Positions 1 through 15,099 are shown, numbered from the stretch's first letter. The stretch is DNA of 64,000 bases from a bacterium (GCA_016124235.1 WGOC01000017.1:290967-354966), one strand, 5' to 3'. Notes: a model not told the origin generated them from the sequence alone. Numbers and translations are program-made.

Positions 1-611
1 CGCCTTGCACGCCTTCAATCAAGACGGCGACCGTAGCCGGCGAGATGGCATCTTCGACCGCTTTCAAATCGTTGTACGGCACATGCCGGAAACCGGGCAT
101 AATCGGTTCGAAACCTTTTTTTACCTTGTCCTGACCGGTCGCAGCAATGCCGCCGAGCGTCCGACCGTGAAAGGAATTGGTCGCGGCGACGATCTCGAAC
201 CGGCCTTCGTCGTGACCGAACTTGCGGGCGAGTTTGTAAAGTCCTTCGTTCGCTTCCGCGCCGGAATTGCAGAAGAACACTTTGCCAGGCGCGATATGCT
301 CAACAATTTTTTTCGCGAGCCGACCCTGCGGCGCGTGGTAATACAAATTTGAGACATGCATCAACTCGCGCGATTGCTCAACGAGCGCCGCAGTGATTTC
401 CGGATTGGCGTGACCGAGCGCGCACACCGCGATGCCACCGCCGAGGTCGAGGTAACGCTTACCGCGAACGTCCCAGAGATAACTTCCCTGCCCGCGTTTG
501 AACGTCAGGTCAAATCGCCCGTAGCTGGGCACAACGAACTTGTTGAACAGCTCCTGGATTTGTTGCTGTTCGTTCTGAACGATCGGCGGTGGGGGGATGA
601 TCTCTTTCATC
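1..611 (-). CDS. argD: Class III aminotransferase, acetylornithine aminotransferase-like; C-terminal part lies beyond the window start; apparent 1-nt frameshift near position 540
   Basis: Minus-strand translation reads FVVPSYGRFDLTFKRGQGSYLWDVRGKRYLDLGGGIAVCALGHANPEI...LYYHAPQGRLAKKIVEHIAPGKVFFCNSGAEANEGLYKLARKFG...TNSFHGRTLGGIAATGQDKVKKGFEPIMPGFRHVPYND, continuous to position 1. A plausible N-terminus MKEIIPPPPIVQNEQQQIQELFNK starts at the ATG whose complement is 609-611, but it is in a different frame. The two frames meet at the A-run AACAAAG (complement of about 537-545). The track ORFs 5..352(+) and 356..661(+) are antisense to this gene. Confidence 0.75.
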
Positions 612-670
612 GCGCGGCGTGCATTGCTGGACAAGCAGCCGGCAAACTCAAGCAGAAATGACAGGTGGAA

Positions 671-1654
671 TTATTGTTTGTCTAGTGATCCAGGCACATA
701 TCCGACGCGCTCGTAAATATCCGTCAATGGCACTTCCGCCCCATCGCGGCGTTTGCTTTCGTCTGCCGCTTCCATGAAAGCAAAGATCTCGATCGTCTCC
801 GCGGCGGCGAACGGCACTTCGCGGGTCTGGAAGAACTTCACTGCTGCGACAACCAACGGCGCGTAACCGTCATACGCGCCGACATCCATCTCGCCTTTCT
901 CACCTTTGGCATGGCCGCTATAGCCCTTCGACTCGACGTACGTGCCGGTGCGCCCGCCGGACCACGTGCCGGTGACCACGAGTTCGCCGGCGGAATTGGT
1001 GCTGCGCTTCACGCTTTCGCATCCGGTGCCCATCACCGTGAACAATGATTCCACACCGTGGACGGCGTACCAGAACATGTCCGGATGACTTGGCTCAACG
1101 TGATACGGACTGCTCGTCTGCGCGCTTAATACCTTGCCGATGGCGCCACTGTGAACGGCCTGCGTGTTTTTTCCGTAACGCAAAGATGACGCACTGAAGA
1201 CGGGAACGTTGTGTTCTTTTGCCAGTTTAAAAATCGCAATCACGTCACCGAGCGAACCGGCCATCGGTTTGTCGATGTAGATTGGCTTTCCGGCCTGAAT
1301 AACCGGGATCGCCTGCCACAGATGCGGCCGTCCATCGACACTTTCCAGCATCACGGCATCAACGTGCTGGCACATTTCCTCAATCGTCGGATAGAGCGTC
1401 ACGCCGTACTTTTCGGTGAGCTCCTTGGTGTAGCCCTCGATTCTCGATGCGCTTGATTCGATGTCCGGACTGCCGCCCTTGAACGCCGCGACCACACGTG
1501 CGCCGGCAACGTGATCCTTTTGCGAGGCGTCGTTCAGTATCTTGGTAAAAGCGCTGACGTGCGAGGTATCGAGTCCGATCATGCCGATGCGCAGATCGGC
1601 CGCGGACGTCGTCAGCGTGAGAGCGAAGAACGCAGCAAGAATGTGTTTGGGCAT
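671..1654 (-). CDS. Gfo/Idh/MocA-family NAD(P)-dependent oxidoreductase with N-terminal signal peptide
   Basis: N-terminus MPKHILAAFFALTLTTSAADLRIGMIGLDTSH shows a signal peptide followed by a Rossmann GxGxxG-like motif. Overall it resembles the Gfo/Idh/MocA fold. ATG start at 1654. Confidence 0.7.
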   Translation of the reverse strand: MPKHILAAFFALTLTTSAADLRIGMIGLDTSHVSAFTKILNDASQKDHVAGARVVAAFKGGSPDIESSASRIEGYTKELTEKYGVTLYPTIEEMCQHVDAVMLESVDGRPHLWQAIPVIQAGKPIYIDKPMAGSLGDVIAIFKLAKEHNVPVFSASSLRYGKNTQAVHSGAIGKVLSAQTSSPYHVEPSHPDMFWYAVHGVESLFTVMGTGCESVKRSTNSAGELVVTGTWSGGRTGTYVESKGYSGHAKGEKGEMDVGAYDGYAPLVVAAVKFFQTREVPFAAAETIEIFAFMEAADESKRRDGAEVPLTDIYERVGYVPGSLDKQ

Positions 1655-1760
1655 GCGTCTGTTGTCGCTTTACGACGCACGCAAGGCAAGAGCAGAGGCT
1701 GCGTTGAACGCAGATTCAAATTGCTACCGAACAACGACTGTCGCCGGCGTGTGGACCAGC

Positions 1761-2555
1761 TCAGTGGCGTGGATCCGGCACGTCAGTGGGCAACCCCTCG
1801 GCCTCGATGGCCTCGGCAAATTTCCACTGGAAGAGACGGGTCTTGCCGATACCCCGAATTTCGTGAACCACCTCATTGAAATCGTTGGCCTTCAACGCGG
1901 CCTCGATTTCAGTCTTTTTATTCAACGGCAACGCATTGAAGGAAACGGTCACGCCGTTCGGGCGCGACAGGCTCTCCAAGCGAGCGGCCATATTAATTGT
2001 GCCACCACAGTAGTCCCGGTAGCGGAAGAAATTCGGATTAGTTTTGTCGCGGTAGAGCAACCGTTGAAAGGAACCGATCGCGATTCCAATTCCAACGTTG
2101 TATTTTTCCGGTGCGAAGTCCGCGGAGACTTCGTAGAAATTTTTCACGACCTCCTGGCCCACGCACGCCAGGCCGGTGATTTCGTCGACAGTGATGTCGG
2201 TGATCGAACCCTGTTCAGCAATCCAAATCAGCATCAAGCCATCCCCGAGTTCCTTGGCAAACGTAGTGTAACGATCCTTGGCATTAGCTTTCAGCGATTC
2301 AGCTGAGAGATGTTGGCTCAGAACGCGGCGGAAGCACGCCAGCAGGCTGATGGCGTAATCCGAGTTGGCGTCCATGTACGAGGAAAAGTCCCGAATGTCC
2401 GCAAACATGACGATCCCGTTGTGCAGCTCCGCCTTGATGTACTCGTCTTCGAGGGTCGGAAATTTGGAAACGGGCGCAGGTTTTTCCCCGTCGCCATTCA
2501 AATCCACCCGTGATTTTGCGGGCGGAACAAGGGTCGTCTGTCCGAAATTGCTCAT
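1761..2555 (-). CDS. Class III adenylate/guanylate cyclase catalytic-domain protein
   Basis: Motifs VMFADIRDFSSYMD and GGTINMAARLESLS are hallmarks of class III nucleotidyl cyclases. Confidence 0.65.
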   Translation of the reverse strand: MSNFGQTTLVPPAKSRVDLNGDGEKPAPVSKFPTLEDEYIKAELHNGIVMFADIRDFSSYMDANSDYAISLLACFRRVLSQHLSAESLKANAKDRYTTFAKELGDGLMLIWIAEQGSITDITVDEITGLACVGQEVVKNFYEVSADFAPEKYNVGIGIAIGSFQRLLYRDKTNPNFFRYRDYCGGTINMAARLESLSRPNGVTVSFNALPLNKKTEIEAALKANDFNEVVHEIRGIGKTRLFQWKFAEAIEAEGLPTDVPDPRH

Positions 2556-2650
2556 AAAATCGATCGCACCTGCAGAAAACTTAGCACGTGCAATGCCGAG
2601 ACACGGAATCGCATTCGGGTCGGCGGACTTTTCAGGTCGCCCCGGCGCAA

Positions 2651-3700
2651 TTAATTGCCCGAAACGTGATTGGTCGAGTTGGAGGAAAGTATCGGCAGCC
2701 GAGAAAGTTCGCCGGCCAGAACTCTGGTGAAATGCTCGGCCCCACTCGGATTTAGATGATACACGCTGGCGAAATAGCCGTTCGGCAATCGCACCGGCAA
2801 ATTCGTGAGCAAGTAATCGGCGTGCACTGATTGACTAAATTCACGGAGCAATTGGTCTCGACGGTCTTTGAACGAGGCGGCGATCTGTGAATCCGGCAAC
2901 GGTGTGATGCCGACCGCCAATTTGGGTCCCGCCGGGATGCGTGCACGAAGCTCTGCCGCTTCAAGTTTCACCGCGTCGGTAATAACATAGTGTGAATCCC
3001 GCGATTTATTCAATGGGTTGTAGGAACCGTACTCAACCATCGAACCGTTATGCTTCGGCAGATATCCACGCAAATGATATGCGTGCCCATAAAAGAGTGA
3101 AGCATTGCCGTAGAGCGTCATCGGAACCAAATGACCCGCTATCCGATCCTTCGCAATATCGAGCGCCAGCCATTCTTGCATTGGCGTCGCTTCACTACCG
3201 ATCGATCGACCGGCCAACAAATTGTGCCAAAGCCGCTGGTGGGGCGGACTCATGTTCGCGTTCTGCAATTCCTGCGGCGTGACCAGTAACACCACCAACT
3301 TCACCTGCCCTGGATGGTGTTTGATGAATTCGCCCGCGGCATCGCCATAGATGTCCATCCCGATGCCCATGAACATGCCCTGGTTGAGGACTTCGTTGCC
3401 GTCGGGCAGCAACCTGGTCAGCAACGCTGCCTGAACGTCGATCCCGCTGGTCGAATCACCGATGATGATCACGTTGGCGTCGGAGGGTGCGCGCGACATG
3501 TCATAACGTCGCCGCATGAGGACTTCGTCGGGACTCTCCACCGGCGCGGCAACGGGAAGCCAACCGGCCAGACTTAAGAAATGGAGCAACAAAACAATCG
3601 CCGCAACCCCAAGCAACGTCGGCGCAAATACCCGCACCAATTCACCAGCCTTGAATTGAAGTTCATGACTCGTCGCTGGTGTTGAAGGACGGCTGTTCAT
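2651..3700 (-). CDS. Membrane-anchored SGNH/AlgJ-AlgX/DltD-like protein, partner of the upstream MBOAT
   Basis: It has an N-terminal transmembrane helix and an IIIGDSTSG (GDS-like) motif. It lies directly downstream of the MBOAT gene on the same strand. The ATG at 3700 follows the TTG used by the ORF track. Confidence 0.5.
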   Translation of the reverse strand: MNSRPSTPATSHELQFKAGELVRVFAPTLLGVAAIVLLLHFLSLAGWLPVAAPVESPDEVLMRRRYDMSRAPSDANVIIIGDSTSGIDVQAALLTRLLPDGNEVLNQGMFMGIGMDIYGDAAGEFIKHHPGQVKLVVLLVTPQELQNANMSPPHQRLWHNLLAGRSIGSEATPMQEWLALDIAKDRIAGHLVPMTLYGNASLFYGHAYHLRGYLPKHNGSMVEYGSYNPLNKSRDSHYVITDAVKLEAAELRARIPAGPKLAVGITPLPDSQIAASFKDRRDQLLREFSQSVHADYLLTNLPVRLPNGYFASVYHLNPSGAEHFTRVLAGELSRLPILSSNSTNHVSGN

Positions 3701-3835
3701 CAATTTGCTCGGCCGGCATCACCAAACTTTAAGATGTGTGCACCGTTCCTTGCAGACCTTTCACGGTCGGCGATTTCGCTCATCCGCGCAATCGCATCTA
3801 CCACCAGTACCGAAATGGAATTCAACGTTCTCATT

Positions 3836-5290
3836 CTAGAATTGAAAATAGATGAACGCCGGGGCTTCGCGTTGCCAGAATAGAATGATCGAATAGATCA
3901 ACGCGGCCTGCAACAAACCGCGCGCCCATCGTGGAAGCCGCATCGCCGCCTCCAGGTCGCCCGTTCGGCATTGCCAAATTTGCATCGCCAGAAGCGGTAC
4001 TGAAAGCACGCACAATTCGCGGAACATCACGCCCGCCCAAACCGGCGGATTCCAATTCGCCAGCGAGGCCGTCAGCGTCAGAACTTGCTCGGCCGAGTTC
4101 GCGCGGAAAAGCAACCAGCCATACAGCGTGAACATCATCGTGAGCAGCCAAGCCAGCCAGCCCGGCATGGCGAATCGACTTCCATGATCGGAAAGCCGGG
4201 ACTCTTGCCCGCTTTCGCCCCGTGAAGCAGGCACCCGTTTGCCCACAATGTTTTCACTCCAGAAGCGGTTCACGATTAGACCAATCGCCTGCCAGAGTCC
4301 CCACGCCAGAAAGTTCCAGGCGGCGCCATGCCACAGGCCGCCTAGCAACATTACGATCATTAGGTTCAGATAAGTTCGGCCGGCCGCGATCCGGTTGCCG
4401 CCAAGCGGCAGGTAGAGGTAGTCCCGCAGCCAGGTGGAAAGGCTGATGTGCCAGCGCCGCCAGAAATCCTGCACGCTGGTCGCGAAATACGGCAGATTGA
4501 AATTCACCATCAGATCAAATCCTAGAATGCGCGCAAGGCCTCGAGCCATGTCCGTATAGCCGGAAAAATCACAGTAGATTTGGAACGCAAAGGCTGTGGT
4601 CGCAATCAACGTCTGGCTGGCCTCGGGTTCAATGATTCGAAAGACCGGATCCACGATGTGCGAAAAGCCATCAGCCAGAACCACTTTTTTGAACATGCCC
4701 CAAATGAACAGCCAGACTCCGGACTCCACCATGGAAAGCGTGATCGTCAGCTTGCGCGCCATTTGCGGCAAAAGATGCGCGGCGCGTTCAATGGGACCCG
4801 CCACCAGTTGCGGGAAGAACGACACGTACGCCATGAACTGCATCAAGTTTCGCGTCGCCGGAATCTGGCCCCGATACACATCAATCGTGTAGCTCAACGT
4901 CTGGAAGGTGTAAAACGAGATCCCCACCGGCAGCACAAATTGCAGGCCCGTCCATTGAACATCGACCCCGAATTGAGCGAGCAACAATCGCGTGCTTTCG
5001 CGAAAAAAATCGAAGTATTTGAAAAAGAACAGAACGCCGAGATTGGTGACCAGACTGACCAGCAGCAACGAACGCCGCGCTCGAAATCGATCCATCGCGA
5101 GCGCCACGAGATAGTCAACGACGCTCGAGAAAAGCAGCAGCGCCGTGAACCGGTAATCCCACCAAGCGTAAAAGATGTAGCTCGCGACGACAATCAACCC
5201 GTTGCGGGCAGCCAGACGATCACGGACCACATACCACGCCAGCAAAAAGACCCCGAAGAAGACCAGGAAGTCGGTTGAATTGAAGAGCAT
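3836..5290 (-). CDS. MBOAT-family membrane O-acyltransferase (AlgI/DltB-like)
   Basis: Multi-transmembrane protein whose N-terminus MLFNSTDFLVFFGVFLLAWYVV resembles AlgI. It carries the conserved His motif FWRRWHISLSTWLRDYLYLPLGGNR. Confidence 0.85.
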   Translation of the reverse strand: MLFNSTDFLVFFGVFLLAWYVVRDRLAARNGLIVVASYIFYAWWDYRFTALLLFSSVVDYLVALAMDRFRARRSLLLVSLVTNLGVLFFFKYFDFFRESTRLLLAQFGVDVQWTGLQFVLPVGISFYTFQTLSYTIDVYRGQIPATRNLMQFMAYVSFFPQLVAGPIERAAHLLPQMARKLTITLSMVESGVWLFIWGMFKKVVLADGFSHIVDPVFRIIEPEASQTLIATTAFAFQIYCDFSGYTDMARGLARILGFDLMVNFNLPYFATSVQDFWRRWHISLSTWLRDYLYLPLGGNRIAAGRTYLNLMIVMLLGGLWHGAAWNFLAWGLWQAIGLIVNRFWSENIVGKRVPASRGESGQESRLSDHGSRFAMPGWLAWLLTMMFTLYGWLLFRANSAEQVLTLTASLANWNPPVWAGVMFRELCVLSVPLLAMQIWQCRTGDLEAAMRLPRWARGLLQAALIYSIILFWQREAPAFIYFQF

Positions 5291-5365
5291 GGCGGCGCGT
5301 GGGAACGCGATGATTTAGCACCAATGCCACGCAGCCTTCAAGATTCTCAATTTAGCTGGGCGCAA

Positions 5366-6556
5366 CTATTGGAGTTCCTTGAGAACATCATCCAGTCCAC
5401 CGGCGACCGGTTCGATTTCGATCCGACCACCGGAATCATTTGATGCTCTTTCAGGTGTTTTGCGCGGTGCCTTGGGAACATCCGATCGCAACGGCGGGAG
5501 TTTCACCAGGCCTGGCCGTTCCTCGGAAACCTCAACTGCTGGCGAGCCCGCTTTCGGAACGTGCCAGTCACTCTTTTTGGCCATCCACGCTTGGTAACGG
5601 GCAAACGTCCACATCCCGGCTTCGGCGCCAGTCTCCATCACGGACGAAATCTTGAAAAAATCCCGGCTGCGGATGTGCGCTTTCACCGGATTGGTCGGGC
5701 GCAGAATTTCCAGCTCCGGCAACGTGATGTTGAGATCCGCGCGATAACGCAATCGTTGGCAGACGACTCCCACCAAACAATCGGCGACCTGCGCGGCAAT
5801 GCTGTTTTGAATGTCCGCCGGGAACGCACCGATCACCCGTTGCAGTGCCTCAACACAGCTCGACGAATGGACCGTGGCCAATACTAGGTGGCCCGTTTCC
5901 GCCGCGCTCAAGGTCAACCGCATCGTCTCGGGATCACGCATTTCGCCGACCATCAGCACATCCGGATCTTCACGCAGCGAATCCAACAGACCCTGCTCAA
6001 ACGATGGTGTGTCGCGGCCAACTTCGCGTTGACGGATGAAGGCGTTCTTCGGGCGAAAGACATATTCGATCGGGCTTTCCAGCGTGAGGACATGGCGCGC
6101 TTCCGCCTGATTCAATTCCTGGATCAACGCCGCCATCGTCGAGGATTTGCCGCTGCCCGTCGGCCCGCTCACCAGGATCAAACCGTGCGGCAATTGAACC
6201 AACTCCTTGAGGGAGGGATGCAGGTTCAGCGTCTGCAAGGTCGCTTCGAACGAACTCAGCAAACGAATGGCAAAACCAATTCCGCGCGATGATTGAAACA
6301 CGTTGACCCGGCAACGCACGCCCGCGATGCGTCGCGAACCATCGAACGAGCGTCGTTGCACAAACTCATTCCACGACTCCTCACCAATCAGACGGCGGGC
6401 AAGACCCAGCAGCAGTTGACCGTCAATCGGCGAGCCCTGTGTCAACAACCGACCCTGCACGCGCACGGCCGGCGGCAAGTCCGGCTCCAGATGAAGATCA
6501 CTCGCGCCCTGTGCGGCGGCGGCACTTACAAATTCTTCCAAAGTCTGCGTTTCCAT
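5366..6556 (-). CDS. pilT: Type IV pilus retraction ATPase PilT-family protein
   Basis: Walker A GPTGSGKSST and near-collinear similarity to PilT (ASDLHL, LVLATVHSSS, REDPDVLMVGEMRD). It has a roughly 60-aa C-terminal extension. Confidence 0.85.
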   Translation of the reverse strand: METQTLEEFVSAAAAQGASDLHLEPDLPPAVRVQGRLLTQGSPIDGQLLLGLARRLIGEESWNEFVQRRSFDGSRRIAGVRCRVNVFQSSRGIGFAIRLLSSFEATLQTLNLHPSLKELVQLPHGLILVSGPTGSGKSSTMAALIQELNQAEARHVLTLESPIEYVFRPKNAFIRQREVGRDTPSFEQGLLDSLREDPDVLMVGEMRDPETMRLTLSAAETGHLVLATVHSSSCVEALQRVIGAFPADIQNSIAAQVADCLVGVVCQRLRYRADLNITLPELEILRPTNPVKAHIRSRDFFKISSVMETGAEAGMWTFARYQAWMAKKSDWHVPKAGSPAVEVSEERPGLVKLPPLRSDVPKAPRKTPERASNDSGGRIEIEPVAGGLDDVLKELQ

Positions 6557-6558
6557 GA

Positions 6559-7026
6559 TCAGCGCAATTCAATGACGTCGCCCGCCTCCACCGGCGGATC
6601 AACACCCCGCAGAAGCTCCGTCGGATTCACCGGAATGATCCGCCCCTTGCGGCGAATATTGATCGCCATCGGATCCTGCGACGAGGTGTAAACGGCTTCA
6701 ACAATTGCTTTGGCCACCGTCAAACCCTCATGCCACGGAATGGCGGGCTTCCGCACCGGGCCACGAACAAACACGTGGGTCATATTCATTTCGGCCGCTT
6801 TCTGGCCCTGCTGAAGGCCCGCTTCAAAGGCCCGACGCGCCTGCTCTTGTGCAGCTTGCTTGCTCACGCAACCAGGCAGCAAGCCAACGCATAAACCGAC
6901 CGCAATGATACCAACCGCCACCTTCAAGACTCCGCCACCCGCGCGGCCGACCCTTTTCAATCCGCATAAGCACGAAGCTGGCAAACCACGCGGCGGCGTC
7001 ATTATTCGATGTTCAATAGCCGGCAT
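6559..7026 (-). CDS. Lipoprotein with an SLBB-like (soluble-ligand-binding beta-grasp) C-terminal region
   Basis: Lipobox LLPGC lies behind a hydrophobic stretch. The C-terminal GDVIEL motif is typical of SLBB domains. Its start is 2 bp upstream of pilT. Confidence 0.4.
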   Translation of the reverse strand: MPAIEHRIMTPPRGLPASCLCGLKRVGRAGGGVLKVAVGIIAVGLCVGLLPGCVSKQAAQEQARRAFEAGLQQGQKAAEMNMTHVFVRGPVRKPAIPWHEGLTVAKAIVEAVYTSSQDPMAINIRRKGRIIPVNPTELLRGVDPPVEAGDVIELR

Positions 7027-7029
7027 TTC

Positions 7030-7512
7030 TCAGCAACTGGTCGGCACGCCCTGGATGACTTTCACGCAATGCGGAATCGCGCCAACGACGAAACTTAAAC
7101 ACTCGACCGCCCCACTTGGTTTCCCGGGAAGCGCGATCACCAGGGCCGAGTCAACGACGGCCGCGAGATTGCGCGACAGAATGGCGTTCTTGGTAATCTT
7201 GAGCGATTCCATCCGCATCGCTTCACCAAAACCCGGCAACTCGCGCGACGCAATCTCGCGGATGGCCTCCGGCGTCACATCTCGGGGAGCGACGCCGGTT
7301 CCACCGGTGGTCAGCACCAGACTGCAACCCTGGTTAACGAATTCGCGAATCGCGCGCTGGATGTCGCGCTTTTCATCCGGCACCAGACTCTCGCCGGTGA
7401 TACTCCACCCGTAGCCAGTGGCGGCCTCCTTCAAAGCCGGCCCGCCCAGGTCGTCATATTCCCCCTTCGACGCGCGATCGGAAACGGTGACAATTCCCAC
7501 ATTGATTTGCAT
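7030..7512 (-). CDS. mogA: Molybdopterin adenylyltransferase MogA/MoaB family
   Basis: MQINVGIVTVSDRASKGEYDD...LVLTTGGTGVAPRDVTPEA is the classic MogA fold signature. Confidence 0.8.
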   Translation of the reverse strand: MQINVGIVTVSDRASKGEYDDLGGPALKEAATGYGWSITGESLVPDEKRDIQRAIREFVNQGCSLVLTTGGTGVAPRDVTPEAIREIASRELPGFGEAMRMESLKITKNAILSRNLAAVVDSALVIALPGKPSGAVECLSFVVGAIPHCVKVIQGVPTSC

Positions 7513-8532: not shown

Positions 8533-8619
8533 GCCGGTGTGGCGGAATTGGCAGACGCGCTAGACTCAAAATCTGGTGTCCTTGCGGACGTGGGGGTTCG
8601 AGCCCCTCCACCGGTACCA
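8533..8619 (+). tRNA. tRNA-Leu (anticodon CAA), type II with long variable arm and encoded CCA
   Basis: GCCGGTGTGGCGGAATTGGCAGACGCGCTAGACTCAAAATCTGGTGTCCTTGCGGACGTGGGGGTTCGAGCCCCTCCACCGGTACCA is near-collinear with E. coli tRNA-Leu. Acceptor stem is GCCGGTG/CACCGGT, anticodon loop is CT-CAA-AA, and the T-loop is GGTTCGAGCC. Confidence 0.9.
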
Positions 8620-8654
8620 ACCTGAATACCCCCTTCTTTTGTTGTGACTTGACC

Positions 8655-8700
8655 CATAAAATGGCCGCATCGGCCTCTTTATGCCCCCGGCCATTTTATG
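8655..8700. repeat. Perfect 13-bp inverted repeat (CATAAAATGGCCG ... CGGCCATTTTATG) with 20-nt loop, 36 bp downstream of tRNA-Leu
   Basis: Seen directly in the sequence. A second 7-bp inverted repeat (ACATTTC/GAAATGT, 8708-8735) follows. Confidence 0.5.
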
Positions 8701-9238
8701 CCTCGAGACATTTCGTCGCTATTTAAGAGAAATGTGGCCAAGAATCGCCAAACACTCGGCCAAGTTTTGGTTCAACTTCAATGGCATTCCCGATTTGGGT
8801 TGAAGCCGAATGAATTGGGGGCAGCAGAGACTGACGTGAAATCGAGGAGTTCAACTCGATTGGGTCAGAACGACATTAGTGCAGATTGGCCTCCGGGTCG
8901 AAGCATCGCGTGGTCAACTATCCCCGACCCGGCCCAGTTCCTCCCGGGCCCGGATCCATTCCTGCCTTGCCACCGCATCCCGCAAGTCGAGATAGCTCGG
9001 CAGTTCTGCCCGAACGCGGCCGGCGCTTGGATACTCAGCCCAGTTCCTCGACCGCAAGGCTCAAGGCCGAAGAGTCTCGTTCTCGGTGGAACTTGCTCGC
9101 ATGTTAAAGCCTCCAGCCCAATGGATGATTCGAAGTGGGGTATCTTCATTGTCGGAGTAGTGGCTCAGTAACAATAGATGTCATCAACTGGGGTGCTGGA
9201 TGACTGCCTCGCCCTCTGGGGCCGCGGCGTGATTCGGC

Positions 9239-10270
9239 TTGTACGTGCCTGTAGTCGGTGCCTCCTGGTATCGAAAGCTCGCCACGGCCGATTCAAATGT
9301 CATACTGCCGCCGGAGATGTCGCATCAGGCGGACAACGTTTCAGCCGGAACCCAGGTGGTTGCGCTGATCGAGGTGCGGGGCACCAACAATTCGTTGGTA
9401 CACCCGCGCGGTGCGGTCGGAGTGGTCACCCGCACACCGGCCGTCGCAGGGGAAAAGTTTCTCATACGATTCCCGGATGGCTTTGAAGGGACGTTCGAAC
9501 GTGATCAATTTGATGTGCTCAAGCATTTCAAAGATCGATTGGGACCGGTCTCCAATGGCACTCCGGCCTTTGATCTCGAATCCTGCATCATCTACCGCTG
9601 CGTGATCGGCTCGCGGGCCTATGGACTCGACACCGACGAATCGGACACCGACCGCCGAGGCGTTTACCTCGCGCCCGCCGATCTCCAGTGGTCGCTTTTT
9701 GGTGCGCCGGAACAATTTGAGGACCACGCCACGCAAAGTTGTTATTGGGAGCTGCAGAAATTTCTGACCATGGCCCTCAAGGCCAACCCGAACATTCTCG
9801 AATGTCTCTGGTCGCCGATGGTCGAGAAAGTCACCGACCTGGGAATGGAGCTTTTGACCATGCGCGAAGCGTTCTTGAGTCAGATGATTTTTCAGACGTT
9901 CAACGGTTACGCCGTGAGCCAGTTCAAGAAGATCGAGCAGGATTTGCGAAACTCGGGCCAGATCAAATGGAAACATGCAATGCACCTACTGCGTCTGCTG
10001 CTCACGGGCGCGGCCACATTGAGAACCGGAACTGTTCCGGTGCGCGTCGAGGCACACCGTGACCGCTTGCTCGCCGTCAAACGTGGCGAATTCGCATGGC
10101 CCGAAGTAGACGCCTGGCGCAGAGAACTCCACCGCGATTTCGAACGCGCCTTGGCCGAAACGAAATTGCCTGAACGCCCAGACTACGACGCGGCAAATAG
10201 GATCTTGATTAAAACGCGGCGAGAGATGGTAACAGCAAAAACGAACTACCACGATTACCCATGCGAATAG
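9239..10270 (+). CDS. Pol-beta superfamily nucleotidyltransferase (RlaP/PF10127-like), paralog 1, with N-terminal extension
   Basis: GSRAYGLDTDESDTDRRGVYLAP fits the GS-x(9-13)-DxD nucleotidyltransferase motif, and the C-terminal LPERPD motif is shared with paralog 2. The track start is TTG 9239, with the first ATG at 9317. The stop TAG 10268-10270 overlaps the start of the next gene. Confidence 0.7.
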   Translation: MYVPVVGASWYRKLATADSNVILPPEMSHQADNVSAGTQVVALIEVRGTNNSLVHPRGAVGVVTRTPAVAGEKFLIRFPDGFEGTFERDQFDVLKHFKDRLGPVSNGTPAFDLESCIIYRCVIGSRAYGLDTDESDTDRRGVYLAPADLQWSLFGAPEQFEDHATQSCYWELQKFLTMALKANPNILECLWSPMVEKVTDLGMELLTMREAFLSQMIFQTFNGYAVSQFKKIEQDLRNSGQIKWKHAMHLLRLLLTGAATLRTGTVPVRVEAHRDRLLAVKRGEFAWPEVDAWRRELHRDFERALAETKLPERPDYDAANRILIKTRREMVTAKTNYHDYPCE

Positions 10271-12207
10271 TCAACCTTAAGATAAACAGCTGGCGCAATT
10301 TCAGGGGTATTTCGTTGGAAATTCCAGAGGGCTCCAAACTGGTATGCTTGGTTGGAGAGAATGGGGCTGGGAAGAGCAATATTCTGGAATTAATTTCCGC
10401 GGCTGCGCATTACTTCGGCATTTCACCTGGCATCCAGATAGCGCGTGGAAATCCTTTCGATGAAGACCACGATGTTGAGATTGTTATCAAGTTTCCGGAA
10501 GCGAGAGAAATTCTGTTAGGCGAGGAATATTGCCAAACAATCATCGACAATTACCCGACATGGGACGGAACATTGCGCCTTGAGAGCTCAAGAGGAACAG
10601 GCACTCGAAACCAGACATTGGTGTATGCGGGCGGTATCGAAAATCCAGAAGTCGCTCGTTCGTTTGCTATAAGCAATCTTATCCCTCAAATCCGACAGAG
10701 AAAGGATACGTTTTACCTCTTTCTTGACGCAGACCGAGCCTACCCTCCGACTAAACTGCGCCGTGAACATTTTGCAGAAGGACTGATGCGTGCGTGGGAT
10801 TCGATCGAATGGCGTAAGAACAAGGCGTTTTTGCCGACACGCCAACTTTACGAAGAATGGATTAATTTTATGCTTTCGGTCGAAGGGCAGGAGGCAACTC
10901 AACATTTTCAAAAGCTTAGAAAAGCGCAAGAACTTTGCAATCCTGCACCGCTATTTACAGACCACTTCCTTTCATTCAAAAACTCTTTGAGAAAGGTGCT
11001 ACAACATTTGCAATTCGAGGGAGTTGATCAACAGCACCAAACAATCCTATTCGATACCGCTGCTGGGCCACTTAACTACAATCAATTGAGCGGCGGTGAA
11101 CGCGAGATCGCATTTCTGATCGGTCAAATCGAAAGATTTCAACTTCGAAGAGGCCTATTGCTAGTTGACGAACCTGAGTTGCATTTGAATTCCGACCTTA
11201 TACGTATTTGGATATCGTTCTTACGAGATACAGTCGAAGACGGGCAAACCTGGATCGCAACTCATTCGTTGGAGGCAGTCGAGGTCGCCGGCAGGATTTC
11301 AACATTTGTTTTGGAACGTTCGGAAACGAGACGAGTTGTTGATTGTGCCAGCTCGTTGGAAAATCGACCGATTCTGAACATTCTTGCCGGCGCCTTAGGC
11401 TCGCCCGCCTTTTCTCTCACAAGATTGCGGTTCGTATTCGTCGAGGGAGACCGCGGCAGAGACGAAAGAGAGCGCTTCCACAAACTTTGCCAGAATGCTC
11501 CGGAAAACCGATTCATGGAAGGAGGGGGCTGCAAAGAAGTGATCGGTAGAGTGAGAGTGGTGAGCGAACTAGCGGCTGAAACCGAAAGTCAGATACGTGT
11601 CGGAGGAATTCTCGATCGGGATTTCCGAACGCAAAGCCAGCTCGACGCGCTCACCAAAGACCTGCCAGTATTCGTTTTGCCGTGCCACGAAGTCGAAAAT
11701 TTATTCCTTCACCCAACTGGTTTGACACAACTTCAAAAAAGAATGGGAGGCACCGAATCTGTGGAGGGATTGCTTCAATTGGCCAGTGACCGGTTTGCAG
11801 GCGGTTGGATATTCCAGCATGCATACACCCAGACCAATGATCTGCCCGAACCGAGCAGAACTCTAAAAGACGGCTTTTGGAATTCTAGCTGGGCTGTTTT
11901 CTCACAGGACATCGAAAGCAAAGTAATGTCACTCATCGCGCTACAACCGGCACTTAATTCGAATGACCGAACGCGCCTCAAGACTGCCTTGGAAATAGCT
12001 GCAAGAATTTATAAAAGAGTCCGACTTGCTGACACCCTCTGGAAAGAATGTTTAGGCAAACAAACATTGGCCGAAATTTCCCGCAAGCTAGGCTTTCGAG
12101 GGCCAGAGATTGTCGAGGGATGCGTGCTGCAAATGTGGGCCAATGATGAAGTGCAAATTCCGGCCGAAGTGGAATCGGTTCGAGATTTTGTAAGCACGCT
12201 CCAATGA
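10261..12207 (+). CDS. OLD-family/PARIS (AriA-AriB fusion)-like protein: N-terminal ABC/AAA_15-21 ATPase plus C-terminal TOPRIM (DUF4435-like) nuclease
   Basis: Walker A GENGAGKSN; ABC signature-like LSGGEREIAF; Walker B LLLVDEPELHLNSD; H-loop IATHS. The C-terminus carries FVFVEGDRGRDE, ILDRDF and HEVENLF, which are TOPRIM E/DxD-type motifs. The gene is about 45% GC against about 60% for its flanks. Confidence 0.8.
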   Translation: MRIVNLKINSWRNFRGISLEIPEGSKLVCLVGENGAGKSNILELISAAAHYFGISPGIQIARGNPFDEDHDVEIVIKFPEAREILLGEEYCQTIIDNYPTWDGTLRLESSRGTGTRNQTLVYAGGIENPEVARSFAISNLIPQIRQRKDTFYLFLDADRAYPPTKLRREHFAEGLMRAWDSIEWRKNKAFLPTRQLYEEWINFMLSVEGQEATQHFQKLRKAQELCNPAPLFTDHFLSFKNSLRKVLQHLQFEGVDQQHQTILFDTAAGPLNYNQLSGGEREIAFLIGQIERFQLRRGLLLVDEPELHLNSDLIRIWISFLRDTVEDGQTWIATHSLEAVEVAGRISTFVLERSETRRVVDCASSLENRPILNILAGALGSPAFSLTRLRFVFVEGDRGRDERERFHKLCQNAPENRFMEGGGCKEVIGRVRVVSELAAETESQIRVGGILDRDFRTQSQLDALTKDLPVFVLPCHEVENLFLHPTGLTQLQKRMGGTESVEGLLQLASDRFAGGWIFQHAYTQTNDLPEPSRTLKDGFWNSSWAVFSQDIESKVMSLIALQPALNSNDRTRLKTALEIAARIYKRVRLADTLWKECLGKQTLAEISRKLGFRGPEIVEGCVLQMWANDEVQIPAEVESVRDFVSTLQ

Positions 12208-12311
12208 TCGACTCCAGTCTCGACCGCATCGTTGCGACGCAGCCTTACGCGCTGCTCTTTGCCACGATCAGCGCCTCGTATTTGACGGGAGGTTTATCAC
12301 CGGACGATTGA
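12204..12311 (+). pseudogene. Degenerate 5' remnant of an RlaP-like nucleotidyltransferase gene; its ATG overlaps the upstream TGA stop (ATGA)
   Basis: It encodes MIDSSLDRIVATQPYALLFATISASYLTGGLSPDD*, which aligns with the start of paralog 2 (MTIDTRLHSIVAAQPYPLLFATVSGAHLYGFPSPDSD). The GS...DxD catalytic residues are lost and it ends after 35 codons. Confidence 0.55.
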
Positions 12312-12355
12312 GCTGCAAGCTGGACGGCCTCACTCCGGCAGCATAACTTTTTGCC

Positions 12356-12571
12356 ATGCTTGACTGGAGCCAGTGCGAACAGGTGGAACGTCACCCGGAC
12401 GTCGTGAGTGGCGCGTGGGTGTTCAAGGGCACGCGCGTTCCGGTGGCGGCGTTTTTTGAAAACTTGGAAGAGGGTGCCTCCGTCGAGGATTCCCTCGAAT
12501 GGTTTCCCGGCGTTTCCCGTGAACAGGTCGTCGCAGTACTTTCCCACGCGGAACACCGTCTCGTGGCGTGA
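12356..12571 (+). CDS. DUF433-family small protein (putative antitoxin)
   Basis: GAWVFKGTRVPV is the DUF433 signature. It is 71 aa and its stop overlaps the start of the next gene (GTGA). Confidence 0.7.
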   Translation: MLDWSQCEQVERHPDVVSGAWVFKGTRVPVAAFFENLEEGASVEDSLEWFPGVSREQVVAVLSHAEHRLVA

Positions 12572-12885
12572 GAATTCTTTTCGATCAGGGCGTGCTGGTG
12601 CCGCTCCGGAGGGAGCTTCCCGAGCACGGCATTTCCACTGCGTTTGAACAGAGATGGTCGGCCTTGAGCAACGGCCTGTTGCTAAGTTCGGCCGAGGAGG
12701 CCGGCTTCGAATCGATGATCACCACCGACAAGAACCTGAGGTATCAGCAAAATCTGGCGGATCGTCGAGTTGCCATCCTGGTACTGCCGACAACGCGCTG
12801 GCCGGTGATCGAGCGACACACGCTGGTTGTAAAAGAGGCGTTGAAAAACCTCCGCTCGGGCGAGTATCGCGAACTATCCTGGTGA
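12568..12885 (+). CDS. DUF5615-family PIN-like protein (putative toxin of the DUF433/DUF5615 pair)
   Basis: MRILFDQGVLVPLRRELPEHGI with an acidic TTDKNL core, 105 aa, GTG start. Together with DUF433 this is the canonical pairing. Confidence 0.65.
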   Translation: MRILFDQGVLVPLRRELPEHGISTAFEQRWSALSNGLLLSSAEEAGFESMITTDKNLRYQQNLADRRVAILVLPTTRWPVIERHTLVVKEALKNLRSGEYRELSW

Positions 12886-12887
12886 TC

Positions 12888-13667
12888 ATGACCATCGACA
12901 CACGCCTTCACAGCATCGTTGCTGCGCAGCCGTATCCGCTGCTGTTTGCCACCGTCAGCGGCGCGCACCTGTATGGTTTTCCGTCCCCGGACTCTGATTT
13001 TGATTTGCGTGGCGCGCATGTGTTGCCGCTCGAAAAGGTCGTCGGTCTGGAGGTGAAGAATGAGACCCTAGAGGACAGTCGGATTATTGATGGTCTGGAC
13101 ATGGACATTGTGAGCCATGACGTGCGGAAGTTCTTTGGCCTGCTCCTGAAGAAGAACGGCTATGTGCTCGAACAACTGTTTTCGCCGCTCATCGTTCACA
13201 CCACGCCTGAGCACGAGGAGTTAAAGGCCCTTGCGGGCGGCCACAAAAAGCAGACGGGCGTAATCACTAAACATCATGCCCATCACTACTTCGGATTCGC
13301 GGAAACGCAGTGGAATTTGTTTTTGAAGGAGTCGCCGCGGCGGGTGAAGCCGCTGCTCTATGTTTATCGTGTCCTGCTCACCGGCGTTCACTTGATGCGC
13401 ACTGGGGTCATCGAAGCCAACCTCGTGACGTTGAATGGGGACTTCCAGCTGCCATACATCGCCGAGTTGATTGAGCGCAAAACGACCGGCGAGAACACGA
13501 CCTTGTCCGACGCCGATCTGTCGTTTCATGAGTCGGAATACCAGCGGCTGCGAGGTCAGTTGCAATCCGCCCACGAAGCCAGCCAACTTCCCGAGCGACC
13601 GGACGAGTCGACGCGGAATGGCTTAAACGATTTGCTCGTACGGATACGTTTGAGTTCCTGTCGCTAG
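12888..13667 (+). CDS. Pol-beta superfamily nucleotidyltransferase (RlaP/PF10127-like), paralog 2
   Basis: MTIDTRLHSIVAAQPYPLLFATVSGAHLYGFPSPDSDFDLRGAHV carries GS-x10-DxD, plus the C-terminal LPERPD motif. The ATG at 12888 lies 3 nt after the DUF5615 stop. The track ORF from 12654 includes a spurious leader. Confidence 0.75.
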   Translation: MTIDTRLHSIVAAQPYPLLFATVSGAHLYGFPSPDSDFDLRGAHVLPLEKVVGLEVKNETLEDSRIIDGLDMDIVSHDVRKFFGLLLKKNGYVLEQLFSPLIVHTTPEHEELKALAGGHKKQTGVITKHHAHHYFGFAETQWNLFLKESPRRVKPLLYVYRVLLTGVHLMRTGVIEANLVTLNGDFQLPYIAELIERKTTGENTTLSDADLSFHESEYQRLRGQLQSAHEASQLPERPDESTRNGLNDLLVRIRLSSCR

Positions 13668-13740
13668 CGGAGGCCAATTCACAAAACCGGAGGGAAAAGG
13701 CGGGCTTCTCATCCCGGATGATTTGGACCAGATTGGGTCC

Positions 13741-15099
13741 ATGCCACACATGAACATTTCAGGTATTCGCCGTTACGCGGTTCAAGGCGTCCTGCTGGCC
13801 TCGATTGGAATGCCCGCGTTCCATACTCGAGCCGATGACTGGCCGCAATGGCTGGGTCCGGAGCGGGACGGCGTCTGGCGCGAATCGGGGATTGTTGAAA
13901 CGTTGCCTGTCGGGGGCCTGACTTATCGGTGGCGCATCCCGATCGGTAGCGGCTATTCCGGGCCGGCTGTAGCGGGCGGTCGGGTCTTCGTGATGGATCG
14001 TCAGCTCGCTGCTGGAAATGCCAATCCTCAGAACGCCTTTTCCCGGGGACAGATTCCCGGCACAGAGCGGGTGCTTTGCTTGAACGAGGCAGATGGCAAA
14101 ATCCTCTGGCAACACACTTACGATTGCCCTTACACGGTCAGCTACGCAGCGGGTCCACGCGCCACACCGGCAGTGTCCGATGGCCGCGTTTACACTTTGG
14201 GTGCTGAAGGCAATTTGTTTTGCCTCAATGTCGAGGACGGCAAAGTAATCTGGTCCCATGATTTCAAAAAGGAATTCGGAATCAAGACACCGACGTGGGG
14301 CTTCGCCGGGCACCCGCTTGTGGACGGAAAAAAGTTGATCTGCCTTGCTGGTGGCAACGGCAGCGTGGCGGTTGCGTTCGACAAGGTGACCGGCCGGGAA
14401 TTGTGGCGGGCGTTGAGCGCCAAGGAACCCGGTTACGCACCGCCCATGATTTATGAATTCGATGGCAAACGGCAGTTGATCATCTGGGATCCCGAGTCGG
14501 TGAACGCGCTCGACCCGGAAACGGGGAAAGTTCTGTGGACCTACGAGCTTGAACCGCCGGTGCGACAGGGCATGGCGATTCCCACTCCGCGAAAGGTGGG
14601 CGATGAATTATTCCTCACGTCGTTTTACAACGGGTCGTTGCTCTTGCGAATCGGCCCCGATGGAGCGTCAAAAGTGTGGGCCAGCAAAAAGGTGAGCGAG
14701 ACCGACACCGACGGACTGCACAGTGTGTTTGCGCAGCCATTCATCGAGGACGGTCACATTTACGGACCGGGCAGCTATGGTCAGTATCGCTGTCTCGACC
14801 TGGAGACGGGCGAACGTTTGTGGGAAACCTTCGCGCCGACAAGCGGCAAGTCCGAACGCTGGGGCAACGCGTTCACTGTGGAGCACGGCGACCGTTGTTT
14901 CCTGTTCAGTGAAACAGGTGATCTGATCATCGCGAAGTTGAGCGCGGAGAAATACCAGGAATTGAGCCGGGCTCACCTGATCGATCCGGTGAACCACGAT
15001 CCTGGCCGACCGGTCGTGTGGTCGCACCCGGCCTTTGCCGACAAATGCGTCTTTGTGCGAAATGATCAGGAGATCGTCTGCGTGTCTTTGGCAAAGTAG
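13741..15099 (+). CDS. Secreted PQQ-like (BamB/YVTN-type) beta-propeller repeat protein
   Basis: A signal peptide is followed by DDWPQWLGPERDGVW and repeated G..LW/W.. motifs. The track start is TTG 13723. Confidence 0.65.
   Translation: MPHMNISGIRRYAVQGVLLASIGMPAFHTRADDWPQWLGPERDGVWRESGIVETLPVGGLTYRWRIPIGSGYSGPAVAGGRVFVMDRQLAAGNANPQNAFSRGQIPGTERVLCLNEADGKILWQHTYDCPYTVSYAAGPRATPAVSDGRVYTLGAEGNLFCLNVEDGKVIWSHDFKKEFGIKTPTWGFAGHPLVDGKKLICLAGGNGSVAVAFDKVTGRELWRALSAKEPGYAPPMIYEFDGKRQLIIWDPESVNALDPETGKVLWTYELEPPVRQGMAIPTPRKVGDELFLTSFYNGSLLLRIGPDGASKVWASKKVSETDTDGLHSVFAQPFIEDGHIYGPGSYGQYRCLDLETGERLWETFAPTSGKSERWGNAFTVEHGDRCFLFSETGDLIIAKLSAEKYQELSRAHLIDPVNHDPGRPVVWSHPAFADKCVFVRNDQEIVCVSLAK

Follow-up and report, generated by a model that had tools for sequence, protein, structure and literature searches.

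Prophage integration duplicates gene ends, as at tRNA 3' ends and in icd: phage 21 and e14 integrate at the 3' end of icd and bring a replacement gene end, and their hallmark is a duplicated gene end that, in its conserved part, has diverged mainly at silent sites. Defence genes can also be nested in conserved operons, for instance between hsd genes, and PrrC lies in this way within the type I restriction-modification (RM) operon of the prr locus. In the P2/P4 and core-gene-flanked defence hotspots, unrelated defence systems are swapped between fixed flanks among close relatives, the interior lacks transposases and integrases, and short remnants that look like pseudogenes are read as traces of intense recombination (PMC13586616). 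PARIS consists of two separate proteins, an ABC-type ATPase (AriA) and a DUF4435/Toprim tRNA nuclease (AriB), that form an AriA6:AriB complex; a phage anti-restriction protein activates the system, and tRNA is then cleaved. Fused forms occur as occasional variants (PMC11464382). Finally, the characterised RlaP nucleotidyltransferases of RNA repair operons are single genes in rtcB-rtcA operons; those of Pseudomonas extend RNA 3'-OH ends by 1-2 NMPs and contribute to the restoration of damaged tRNA (PMC12776372).

The window analysed here, a stretch of 64,000 nucleotides of bacterial DNA, holds a locus that shares the traits of the described hotspots (Table 1). It differs from them because its anchors are two genes of one small chromosomal RlaP operon, NT1 and NT2, and because its cargo lies inside this operon, is co-oriented with it, and is often translationally coupled. 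The presence of cargo inside a conserved operon is common to type I RM operons, but the host here is a pair of predicted RNA-repair enzymes and not itself a defence system. One hsd locus (L003) has the same anatomy as the window: a homologue of the AriAB gene sits between hsdS and hsdM, and after it come, in this order, a 103-nt 5' stub of hsdM (82% identity, score 121 vs 16.7±2.4), further cargo consisting of a 227-aa ORF plus Fic, and the intact hsdM. We consider it likely that the 35-codon ORF between the two cargo blocks of the window is what remains of the 5' end of an NT2-type RlaP gene, a non-functional stub left as a recombination scar in a hotspot of defence cargo between NT1 and NT2.

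Table 1. Features of the RlaP-pair locus in the window (positions counted from the first nucleotide of the window).
Feature	Position	Strand	Remarks
tRNA-Leu(CAA)	8533..8619	+	ARAGORN; Rfam tRNA 51.3 bits; ~620 nt 5' of NT1; context only
NT1, RlaP-family nucleotidyltransferase, left anchor	9239..10270	+	PF10127 E=9.9e-42, residues 116-324
Cargo A, fused AriA-AriB (PARIS-type)	10261..12207	+	AAA_21 + DUF4435; foreign composition
NT2 5' stub	12204..12311	+	35 codons homologous to NT2 codons 1-36; degenerate
Spacer, left end of toxin-antitoxin (TA) cassette	12312..12355	+	conserved in L087 at 11.6% divergence
Cargo B gene 1, DUF433, putative antitoxin	12356..12571	+	PF04255 E=4.4e-14, 52.5 bits vs cut-off 23.6
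Cargo B gene 2, 105-aa DUF5615-like putative nuclease toxin	12568..12885	+	intact; homologues carry PF18480
NT2, intact RlaP nucleotidyltransferase, right anchor	12888..13667	+	PF10127 E=1.2e-54

Both anchors are full-length RlaP proteins with the catalytic motifs (GSRAYGLDTDESD and SGAHLYGFPSPDSDFD are kept in the pair; SGAHLYGFPSPDSDFD is invariant and present in NT2), and they score 143.8 (NT1) and 186.1 bits (NT2) with PF10127, for a cut-off of 23. They are diverged paralogues (22-27% identity). NT1 has an N-terminal extension of ~110 aa, and its last ~10 codons are unconserved and part of the cargo boundary: tblastn matches in relatives stop at about residue 328-335 of 343. NT2, correctly predicted to be a full nucleotidyltransferase copy, shows 62-83% amino acid identity with hundreds of homologues. 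The two proteins resemble the characterised RlaP by their clear PF10127 matches, and in one locus (L149 only) the pair encloses Hen1 and Pnkp. In contrast to the single genes in rtcB-rtcA operons, NT1 and NT2 form an operon of their own, mostly without a ligase, and their activity is here a prediction. We found no RNA ligase gene in the window.

Cargo A, which begins before NT1 has ended, encodes one 648-aa polypeptide with ABC-ATPase and DUF4435/Toprim nuclease domains. Pfam identifies AAA_21 (6.8e-17), AAA_15 (1.9e-13), and DUF4435 (PF14491, 2.8e-7; 31 bits for a cut-off of 27, residues 391-492), and the translation contains a Walker A motif (GENGAGKS), the signature, a Walker B motif (LLLVDEPE), and Toprim-like VEGD, DRD, and EVEN motifs. 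The PADLOC model of fused AriAB matches residues 272-624 (4.8e-28), whereas matches to the Old and GajA models are confined to residues 1-50 (E about 1e-9); the AriAB and AriA models fit far better. The original prediction had called this gene OLD-like, which holds only as a superfamily label, but fused AriA-AriB describes it better. The ATPase and the DUF4435/Toprim domain are in the same order as in PARIS; unlike the two separate proteins of that complex, cargo A is a single chain, nested between RlaP genes and known here from its sequence. It can be regarded as a fused PARIS variant because such fusions were reported (PMC11464382). We found no earlier report of PARIS nested between RlaP genes. 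With a GC content of 0.48 and a GC3 of 0.48, against a GC3 of 0.67-0.72 in its neighbours, the gene is, judging by composition, a foreign insert. Its homologues (~45% identity) occur in many phyla, either stand-alone in defence islands or within type I RM operons, and none adjoins RlaP.

The second cargo block carries two genes, the GTG start of the second overlapping the DUF433 stop. The DUF433 gene is complete, as predicted, and differs from that of a related locus (L087) by 7.4%, with a dN/dS of 0.15. For the assignment of its partner to PIN-like DUF5615, the signal comes from homologues ~60% identical, some of which carry PF18480; the 105-aa protein itself has no direct match in Pfam (E<=10) or NCBIfam. 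PF18480/DUF5615 is precomputed in ~10 of its 120 best homologues (57-67% identical), two homologues are named 'predicted nuclease of predicted toxin-antitoxin system', and all family-invariant residues are retained, including D6, E43, and D54. Its AF2 model (pLDDT 90) is a generic alpha/beta sandwich with no specific PIN match. The overlapping pair recurs in L087/L086, where the toxin gene has an 11-nt deletion, and in L088 in another context. An addiction or stabilising role of the pair, originally put forward as possible, is a hypothesis; the pair is one of many kinds of cargo at the NT1-NT2 site.

The stub ORF encodes MIDSSLDRIVATQPYALLFATISASYLTGGLSPDD followed by a stop codon. The predicted homology with the start of NT2, at about 70% of nucleotides, was confirmed: identity is about 68-70% overall (68% over 101 nt), with a local score of 59 against 19.4±2.5 (maximum 30) in 300 shuffles, 77.6% over 67 nt in blastn (E=3e-9), and 61% of amino acids over 33 residues in tblastn (NT2 residues 3-35, E=3e-7). 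Identity with the N-termini of NT2 homologues from 80 loci is 45-72%. Beyond this RlaP/PF10127 N-terminal homology, the stub does not show the pol-beta motifs hG[GS] and DxD or the full ~250-aa domain. It was also rightly described as stopping early and lacking the catalytic motif. It retains 35 of about 259 amino acids, replaces residues invariant in 145 NT2 homologues (G25A, H27Y, Y29T, and F31G; SASYLTGG in place of SGAHLYGF), and ends at the position of the DxD carboxylates, with the stop after PDD and before the second carboxylate. There is no Pfam match even at E<=10. The GC3 is host-like (0.69). In the comparison with L087, the dN/dS of the stub is 0.36 and that of NT2 0.085. What remains is a pseudogene fragment under relaxed constraint, not a member of the RlaP family in a functional sense. 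Its ATG is overlapped by the TGA of cargo A (ATGA). In the spacer that follows, we found no consensus promoter, terminator, Rfam match, or unusual RNA fold.

We compared 107 unique related loci with both NT1 and NT2. The gene 5' of NT2 is 50-81% identical to NT1 in amino acids. The two genes are separated by at most 250 nt (typically 12-27 nt) in 57 of the loci and by 0.3-5.7 kb of cargo in the other 50. The conserved unit is the RlaP pair NT1-NT2, found in Verrucomicrobiota, Planctomycetota, and cyanobacteria. The cargo slot extends in relatives from ~15 nt before the NT1 stop to the NT2 ATG; almost all cargo ORFs (67 of 72) are co-oriented with the operon, frequently with stop/start overlaps. 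Judged from the systems identified in these loci, the cargo is rich in known defence systems. Menshen NsnA/B/C (E down to 4e-115) and Ietis IetA/IetS (9e-73 and 2e-68) occur as complete systems; the cargo further includes four TIR/ThsB-like proteins, DruA, two type IIG RM, Pnkp/Hen1, and a second AriAB-like fusion. Loci L007 and L009 are 90% identical in NT2 and 88% in the flanks, and L006 and L092 are 95% identical in NT2 and 97% in one flank, yet the cargo is unrelated within each pair; variable cargo between syntenic anchors is also found in L028/L031 and L055/L083. In the pairs of close relatives, homology ends ~15 nt before the NT1 stop and restarts exactly at the NT2 ATG. As befits a hotspot, syntenic and conserved anchors enclose a content that varies among close relatives. 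The AriAB gene and the DUF433/DUF5615-like pair of the window are both cargo of this hotspot.

Stubs of the 5' end of NT2 were identified in five other independent loci (L011, L093, L114, L134, and L143). They all start at the ATG, are 29-100 nt long, and lie between two cargo blocks. Their lengths and ends vary, and there are cases with a 33-nt internal insertion or a fusion to unrelated ORFs. The spacing between cargo and stub is that between cargo and NT2: TIR and stub in L134, like TIR and NT2 in L102, are separated by a 4-nt gap, and in L010 the ATGA overlap recurs on an intact NT2. L134 and L102 are colinear over NT1, TIR, and the NT2 5' end at 90.4%, while their true NT2 genes are 82% identical; the L134 stub has its best match in the NT2 of L102 (90%), and its own NT2 (77%) ranks 59 of 161. 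By their sequence affinities, the stubs of L134 and L011 clearly come from lineages other than that of the resident NT2. An M28-NT2 arrangement is common to L093, L143, and L096 (~85%), but upstream cargo and stub lengths differ.

The order of events in the window can be approached through L087/L086, which has the same block of stub, spacer, DUF433, DUF5615, and NT2; the stub also ends there at the same stop codon. The upstream cargo of L087/L086 is different and does not include AriAB, and the TGA of this cargo likewise overlaps the stub ATG. For this reason, the block of stub and TA pair is older than the AriAB insertion. The window does record a past rearrangement, with a TA-like pair between a degenerate 5' remnant and an intact copy, as was originally proposed. 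Yet the proposal that the pair was captured inside an OLD-nucleotidyltransferase operon is not supported, since the conserved operon is NT1-NT2 and AriAB is itself foreign to it, and the order of events that it implied is reversed. Divergence between the window and L087 decreases from the stub onwards: it is 50% over the first 24 nt of this ORF, 24% over its remainder, 11.6% in the spacer, and 7-9% in the TA genes. It reaches 19% in NT2; the lower divergence of the TA cassette indicates that simple vertical descent of the whole block is insufficient. None of the genomes found was close enough to show an intermediate state: the nearest relative is only 81-88% identical, is represented by two short contigs, and differs from the window 3' of NT2.

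The stub could alternatively have arisen if the TA pair had landed in the 5' part of the nucleotidyltransferase gene in an OLD-nucleotidyltransferase operon, with in situ duplication of the first ~105 nt and decay of the upstream copy. This scenario accommodates the order of stub, TA pair, and intact gene, as well as the coupling of the stub ATG to the upstream stop, and the stub of L114 (78/80 identical to its own NT2) is compatible with a recent local duplication. We nevertheless regard it as unlikely for the window. An OLD/AriAB-RlaP operon is conserved nowhere among the loci examined, and AriAB is compositionally foreign and absent from L087, which already has the stub, the TA pair, and NT2. 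The window stub is 68% identical to its own NT2 and up to 71% to the NT2 of other lineages; because it is no closer to its own NT2, and because the L134 stub is foreign, the copies do not seem to be in situ duplications. Moreover, neither target-site-duplication-like repeats nor a transposase or integrase flank the TA pair.

A functional role of the stub as a conserved short ORF or leader, acting through translational coupling, as a small regulatory peptide, or against polarity (by holding ribosomes on the transcript in the stretch from cargo A to TA/NT2), would explain why its frame is open, ends at an identical position, and has its ATG overlapped by the upstream TGA in both the window and L087. 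We deem it very improbable, given that the stub has diverged by 24-50% next to TA genes at 7-9%, that its dN/dS is about four times that of NT2 with NT2-invariant residues replaced, that stubs elsewhere differ in length and end, and that its region has no Rfam match and an RNA fold z-score of -0.63. Slightly less credible still is an attachment site at the NT2 5' end, where site-specific cassettes would bring a replacement end and displace the old one as an attL/attR copy. A duplicated gene end, diverged in its conserved part mainly at silent sites, does typify such elements, and in five of the seven lineages the stub ends within codons 27-35, two of them at the same GGCGCGCA. However, neither the window cassette nor most cargo contains an integrase or recombinase (only two IS200-like Y1 transposase matches among 67 cargo ORFs), and there are no identical core repeats at the two ends, the identity shared by stub and NT2 being no longer than ~14 nt. 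The 5' end of NT2 shows no constraint on synonymous sites (third-position entropy 1.44 vs 1.45), and 45 of the 50 cargo-bearing loci have no stub. As in prophage integration, the locus combines an intact, restored gene with a truncated and diverged second gene end beside inserted DNA, but the duplicated end is here the 5' one and stub lengths vary.

Under the preferred reading as a recombination scar, the stub would be the fossil of a former junction between cargo and NT2: when a second cassette was added, the old junction would have been left between the cargo blocks, surviving as a stub because the join on one side was presumably illegitimate and not homologous. In the window, either cargo A and the stub may have been added 5' of a resident TA pair, or the TA pair and a new NT2 may have inserted into the resident NT2. 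We infer that the block of stub, DUF433/DUF5615-like pair, and NT2 formed first in this lineage, that the upstream slot, from NT1 to the stub ATG, was afterwards refilled again and again while the stub served as a surrogate 'NT2 start' and right-hand homology arm, and that the low-GC fused AriA-AriB gene is the latest occupant of this slot. The stub is perhaps still translated through its ATGA coupling to AriAB, in which case the peptide would be functionless. Some observations sit less well with a scar: all stubs end inside codons 10-35, a clustering not obviously predicted by random illegitimate joints, and in two lineages the stub frame remains open up to the same stop codon, which would also fit weak selection.

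We found no published description of the NT1-NT2 RlaP hotspot, which appears to be undescribed before. The gene overlaps and the lack of terminator-like sites suggest that NT1, AriAB, the TA pair, and NT2 are probably read from one operon. The locus would thus comprise two predicted RNA 3'-end-repair enzymes, one putative abortive-infection ATPase-nuclease, and one TA-like pair. The stub itself is an ordinary recombination scar, and the locus adds a new case to a known type of defence hotspot.

The 35-codon frame at the centre of the original prediction, hereafter the stub (MIDSSLDRIVATQPYALLFATISASYLTGGLSPDD and a stop codon), aligns to the start of the downstream nucleotidyltransferase NT2 (MTIDTRLHSIVAAQPYPLLFATVSGAHLYGFPSPDSDFD...). 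The proposed homology and its coordinates were correct: identity is 68% across 101 nt, and the local nucleotide alignment score of 59 lies far beyond those of 300 shuffles (19.4±2.5, maximum 30). Searches inside the window also recover the match, with blastn (77.6% over 67 nt, E=3e-9) and tblastn (61% over 33 residues, E=3e-7). The description of the stub as a nucleotidyltransferase remnant, left by a past rearrangement and accompanied by an inserted toxin-antitoxin (TA) pair, was borne out; the stub is real, and as a scar of recombination it is unexceptional. The proposed DUF433/DUF5615 identity of the pair stood in full only for its first gene. Direct Pfam (E<=10) and NCBIfam searches gave no match for the stub or for the 105-aa protein, which is linked to DUF5615 only through homologues at ~60% identity, some carrying PF18480/DUF5615 and some named 'predicted nuclease of predicted toxin-antitoxin system'. 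The protein keeps all invariant residues of the DUF5615-like family, including D6, E43 and D54.

Features of the window locus and of related loci (L handles); window coordinates are forward-strand positions
Locus	Feature	Position	Strand	Identity or remark
Window	tRNA-Leu(CAA)	8533-8619		~620 nt 5' of NT1
Window	NT1	9239-10270	+	RlaP-family nucleotidyltransferase, PF10127 E=9.9e-42
Window	AriAB, 648 aa	10261-12207	+	ABC-type ATPase (AAA_21, AAA_15), then DUF4435
Window	Stub, 35 codons	12204-12311	+	NT2 5' homology
Window	Spacer, 44 nt	between stub and DUF433 gene	+
Window	DUF433 protein, 71 aa	12356-12571	+	DUF433 E=4.4e-14
Window	DUF5615-like protein, 105 aa	12568-12885	+	via homologues
Window	NT2	12888-13667	+	RlaP-family nucleotidyltransferase, PF10127 E=1.2e-54
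L145	Complete Menshen system	600-3858		NsnA 3.6e-115, NsnB 2e-106, NsnC 5e-83
L143	Complete Ietis system	290-3759		IetA 9e-73, IetS 2e-68
L010	Second ATPase-DUF4435-like fusion	4238-6004		PADLOC AriAB 1.4e-27; 24% identity to window AriAB
L149 (also L150)	Hen1 and Pnkp ligase	2027-5997		PF12623, 4.7e-112; PF16542, 2.9e-181
L007	974-aa cargo protein	2340-5264		co-oriented
L009	478-aa cargo protein	4547-5983		co-oriented
L114	993- and 471-aa cargo proteins	531-4770		co-oriented; first with P-loop
L060	~128-aa protein	5624-6004		only cargo
L065	~128-aa protein	5615-6004		only cargo
L066	~128-aa protein	606-995		only cargo
L046	~128-aa protein	5471-6004		adjoins IS200-like gene
L087	ORF end fused to frameshifted NT1	1-541		break directly after DTDESD motif
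L011 (= L116 sequence)	Stub			~95 nt
L011	Stub fused in frame to 217-aa ORF	3974-4627		ORF unrelated
L093	Stub			29 nt
L114 (L115 near-identical)	Stub			80 nt; 78/80 identical to own NT2
L134	Stub			~100 nt; 33-nt insertion
L143	Stub			80 nt
L003 (also L004)	hsdM 5' stub	6949-7051		aligned to 8666-8768

The 648-aa protein between NT1 and the stub had been called OLD-like. It matches the PADLOC model for the fused AriA-AriB form of PARIS (4.8e-28), whereas similarity to the Old and GajA models is confined to residues 1-50, so that PARIS-type fusion is the better name and 'OLD-like' is acceptable at the superfamily level. Fused AriA-AriB forms of PARIS are already known (PMC11464382). AriAB is the clearest compositional island of the region (GC 0.48, GC3 0.48); GC3 is 0.67-0.72 for NT1, the stub, the TA genes, NT2 and the next gene. 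Upstream of NT1 there is a gene for tRNA-Leu(CAA); neither an integrase nor a repeated copy of its 3' end was seen nearby, so the whole block shows no sign of being a tRNA-targeted island. No terminator-like sites were found between the genes. Consensus sigma-70 promoters were likewise absent from 8600-13900, an absence that is uninformative for this phylum.

The original prediction took an OLD-nucleotidyltransferase operon as the host of the rearrangement. The conserved unit is instead the pair of RlaP genes, NT1 and NT2. NT2 homologues reach 75-83% amino acid identity in many Verrucomicrobiota and 62-70% in Planctomycetota and cyanobacteria, and we retrieved 160 loci around them from genomes and metagenomes. 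NT1 lies on the same strand, 5' of NT2, in the 107 unique loci with both genes. Splitting these at a gap of 250 nt, the two genes are at or below the threshold in 57/107 (usually 12-27 nt apart or slightly overlapping) and are separated by 0.3-5.7 kb of additional DNA in the other 50/107. A contig scan with the AriAB protein gave no close relative, and we took its contexts instead from protein homologues and their contigs. These homologues (~45% identity, many phyla) had RlaP neighbours in 0/8 contexts, and lay in type I restriction-modification (RM) operons or beside Mrr, NERD, HNH, methylase or TA genes. The RlaP enzymes characterised so far add 1-2 nt to RNA 3'-OH ends and help to restore damaged tRNA (PMC12776372). 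One locus, L149, carries Hen1 and Pnkp ligase between NT1 and NT2; in at least one lineage, therefore, a classical bacterial system for RNA repair lies inside the RlaP pair.

The NT1-NT2 junction is a hotspot for defence genes and other cargo, embedded in an operon and with exact borders. Among cargo ORFs of at least 70 aa, 67/72 are co-oriented with the RlaP pair, and many finish on or beside the NT2 ATG. In pairs of related loci with different cargo, homology ends ~15 nt 5' of the NT1 stop and restarts exactly at the NT2 ATG. For example, L007 and L009 share 90% identity in NT2 and 88% in the flanks, and L006 and L092 share 95% in NT2 and 97% in the downstream flank, with unrelated cargo in both cases; L028/L031 and L055/L083 likewise combine syntenic flanks with unrelated cargo. 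Mobility of the whole NT1-NT2 module was dismissed as a general explanation because synteny extends to both flanks in most related pairs, even if a few, including the window and L086, differ downstream of NT2. We scanned 67 cargo proteins with Pfam and PADLOC. Besides complete Menshen and Ietis systems, they include four TIR/ThsB-like proteins, two type IIG RM enzymes, DruA, four M28 peptidases, four R2K ATP-grasp proteins, ADP-ribosylglycohydrolases, two IS200-like Y1 transposases, and a second, distantly related ATPase-DUF4435-like fusion, whose TGA overlaps the ATG of an intact NT2. A literature search found no paper describing this paired-RlaP hotspot, which is apparently undescribed so far; defence hotspots with recombination remnants offer a comparison case (PMC13586616).

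The large proteins of L007, L009 and L114 have no PADLOC and essentially no Pfam match; encoded where other loci carry known defence systems, they are candidates for new defence genes. Several Planctomycetota loci have as cargo a protein of ~128 aa (…LYRPVGQ.ELDLI…FPPRL..QPIFYPVL…). The stop of its gene overlaps the NT2 ATG, and it may form a third part of the operon, specific to the lineage.

The closest relatives of the window locus, L087 and L086, are short contigs that come from other samples and overlap by 467 identical nt. They share the block from the stub to NT2, through the spacer and both TA genes, at 81-88% identity, with the stub stop codon at the same position. AriAB is absent from them; upstream of the stub, L087 has the last ~100 codons of another ORF. 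The TGA of this ORF likewise overlaps the stub ATG, and the C-terminal fragment, fused to NT1, looks SF1-helicase-like by eye and has no Pfam match. Since the block is common to both lineages and the content upstream of the stub differs, the stub and TA block are older than the split, and the NT1-stub slot has turned over since. This reverses the order of events first implied, in which the TA module was captured inside an existing operon. The L087/L086 locus is itself decaying, with a fused, frameshifted NT1 and an 11-nt deletion in the DUF5615-like gene. Divergence from the window is 50% in the first 24 nt of the stub, 24% in the rest of it, 11.6% in the spacer, 7.4% in DUF433, 9.1% in the DUF5615-like gene and 18.8% in NT2. 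The gradient across the stub suggests that upstream cargo was swapped by cross-overs within the stub, which would have served as the right-hand homology arm. Together with its foreign composition, it points to AriAB as the newest arrival. The lower divergence of the TA cassette (pS 0.11-0.21) than of NT2 (0.54) hints at exchange on the level of the cassette, perhaps more recent than any exchange of the anchor gene.

Stubs of the NT2 5' end, starting at the ATG, occur in five independent loci besides the window. Each is flanked by two cargo blocks: TIR, Ietis or a STAND-like NTPase pair on the 5' side, and an M28 peptidase, a pentapeptide protein or others on the 3' side. The spacing from cargo to stub matches that from cargo to NT2—4 nt separate the TIR gene from the stub in L134 and from NT2 in L102, and AriAB overlaps the stub by the same ATGA as the L010 fusion does its intact NT2—which indicates that a stub is the fossil of a cargo-NT2 junction. 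The affinities of the stubs argue against local duplication. The L134 stub is nearest to the NT2 of L102 (90%) and matches its own at 77%, rank 59 of 161; the two loci are colinear from NT1 through TIR into the initial 75 nt of NT2 (90.4%), whereas their true NT2 genes share 82%. Similarly, the L011 stub is 83% identical to foreign NT2 genes and 73% to its own. Contigs L093, L143 and L096 have in common an M28-NT2 block (~85%) and its left border; L093 and L143 differ in upstream cargo and stub length, and L096 lacks a stub. These affinities and shared blocks favour a route in which 'cargo A' and a piece of the donor NT2 were added 5' of resident cargo; the alternative is the reverse, that cargo B was imported together with a new NT2. 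Stubs of the NT1 3' end gave just two weak, unconvincing matches in cargo regions (z 5-7). A parallel exists outside RlaP, in a type I RM operon (L003) with the order hsdR, hsdS, AriAB homologue, hsdM 5' stub, 227-aa ORF, Fic and hsdM. As in the window, an AriAB homologue is followed by a 5' stub of the host gene, cargo and the intact gene; the stub covers 103 nt from the hsdM ATG at 82% identity (score 121, shuffles 16.7±2.4).

All stubs finish 5' of the DxD carboxylates, within the most conserved block of NT2, and two share an end at GGCGCGCA. We rejected the idea that this clustering reflects conservation of some DNA or RNA element at the 5' end of NT2, third-position entropy being 1.44 in codons 1-35 and 1.45 in the rest; an RNA element was further discounted by the stub's lack of an Rfam match and its unremarkable RNA fold (z-score -0.63). 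Candidate explanations are that joints are favoured within the most conserved, GC-rich block, that longer fragments are selected against, or that integration proceeds through a Campbell-type single cross-over with a circular [stub + cargo] intermediate. We looked for att-like direct repeats, inverted repeats and a recombinase around the cassettes and found none. The stub itself probably has no function. Comparison of the two lineages gives it a dN/dS of 0.36 (NT2 0.085, DUF433 0.15), from 11.2 non-synonymous and 8.8 synonymous changes over 27 codons, and the window copy has replaced G25, H27, Y29 and F31, invariant in 145 NT2 homologues. Stubs at other loci have different lengths and ends, and some are fused to unrelated ORFs. 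Given the open frame and the ATGA overlap, the window stub may be translated as a by-product of coupling. In L011, the residues after the stub resemble a lipoprotein signal peptide (…LAVVAFVGCSS…), and the stub possibly lends its start codon to cargo.

As a pseudogene fragment, the stub is in itself of little weight. Following it up exposed a hotspot that has co-oriented cargo in roughly half of the 107 loci, drawn from Verrucomicrobiota, Planctomycetota and cyanobacteria, and that provides a search handle for new defence genes in little-studied phyla and, with six independent stub lineages and the type I RM parallel, a natural series on how cassettes pile up without integrases. It is conceivable, if improbable, that the RlaP pair is more than a passive landing site: the flanking repair genes would buffer or make reversible the action of co-transcribed ribotoxic cargo (the PARIS-type tRNA nuclease, the PIN-like toxin) in a damage-and-repair module, and NT2 stubs would act as portable homology arms for integrase-free cassette accretion, including through excised circular [stub + cargo] intermediates. 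The hotspot also suggests a connection, open to testing, between enzymes that repair RNA and immune effectors that cleave it.
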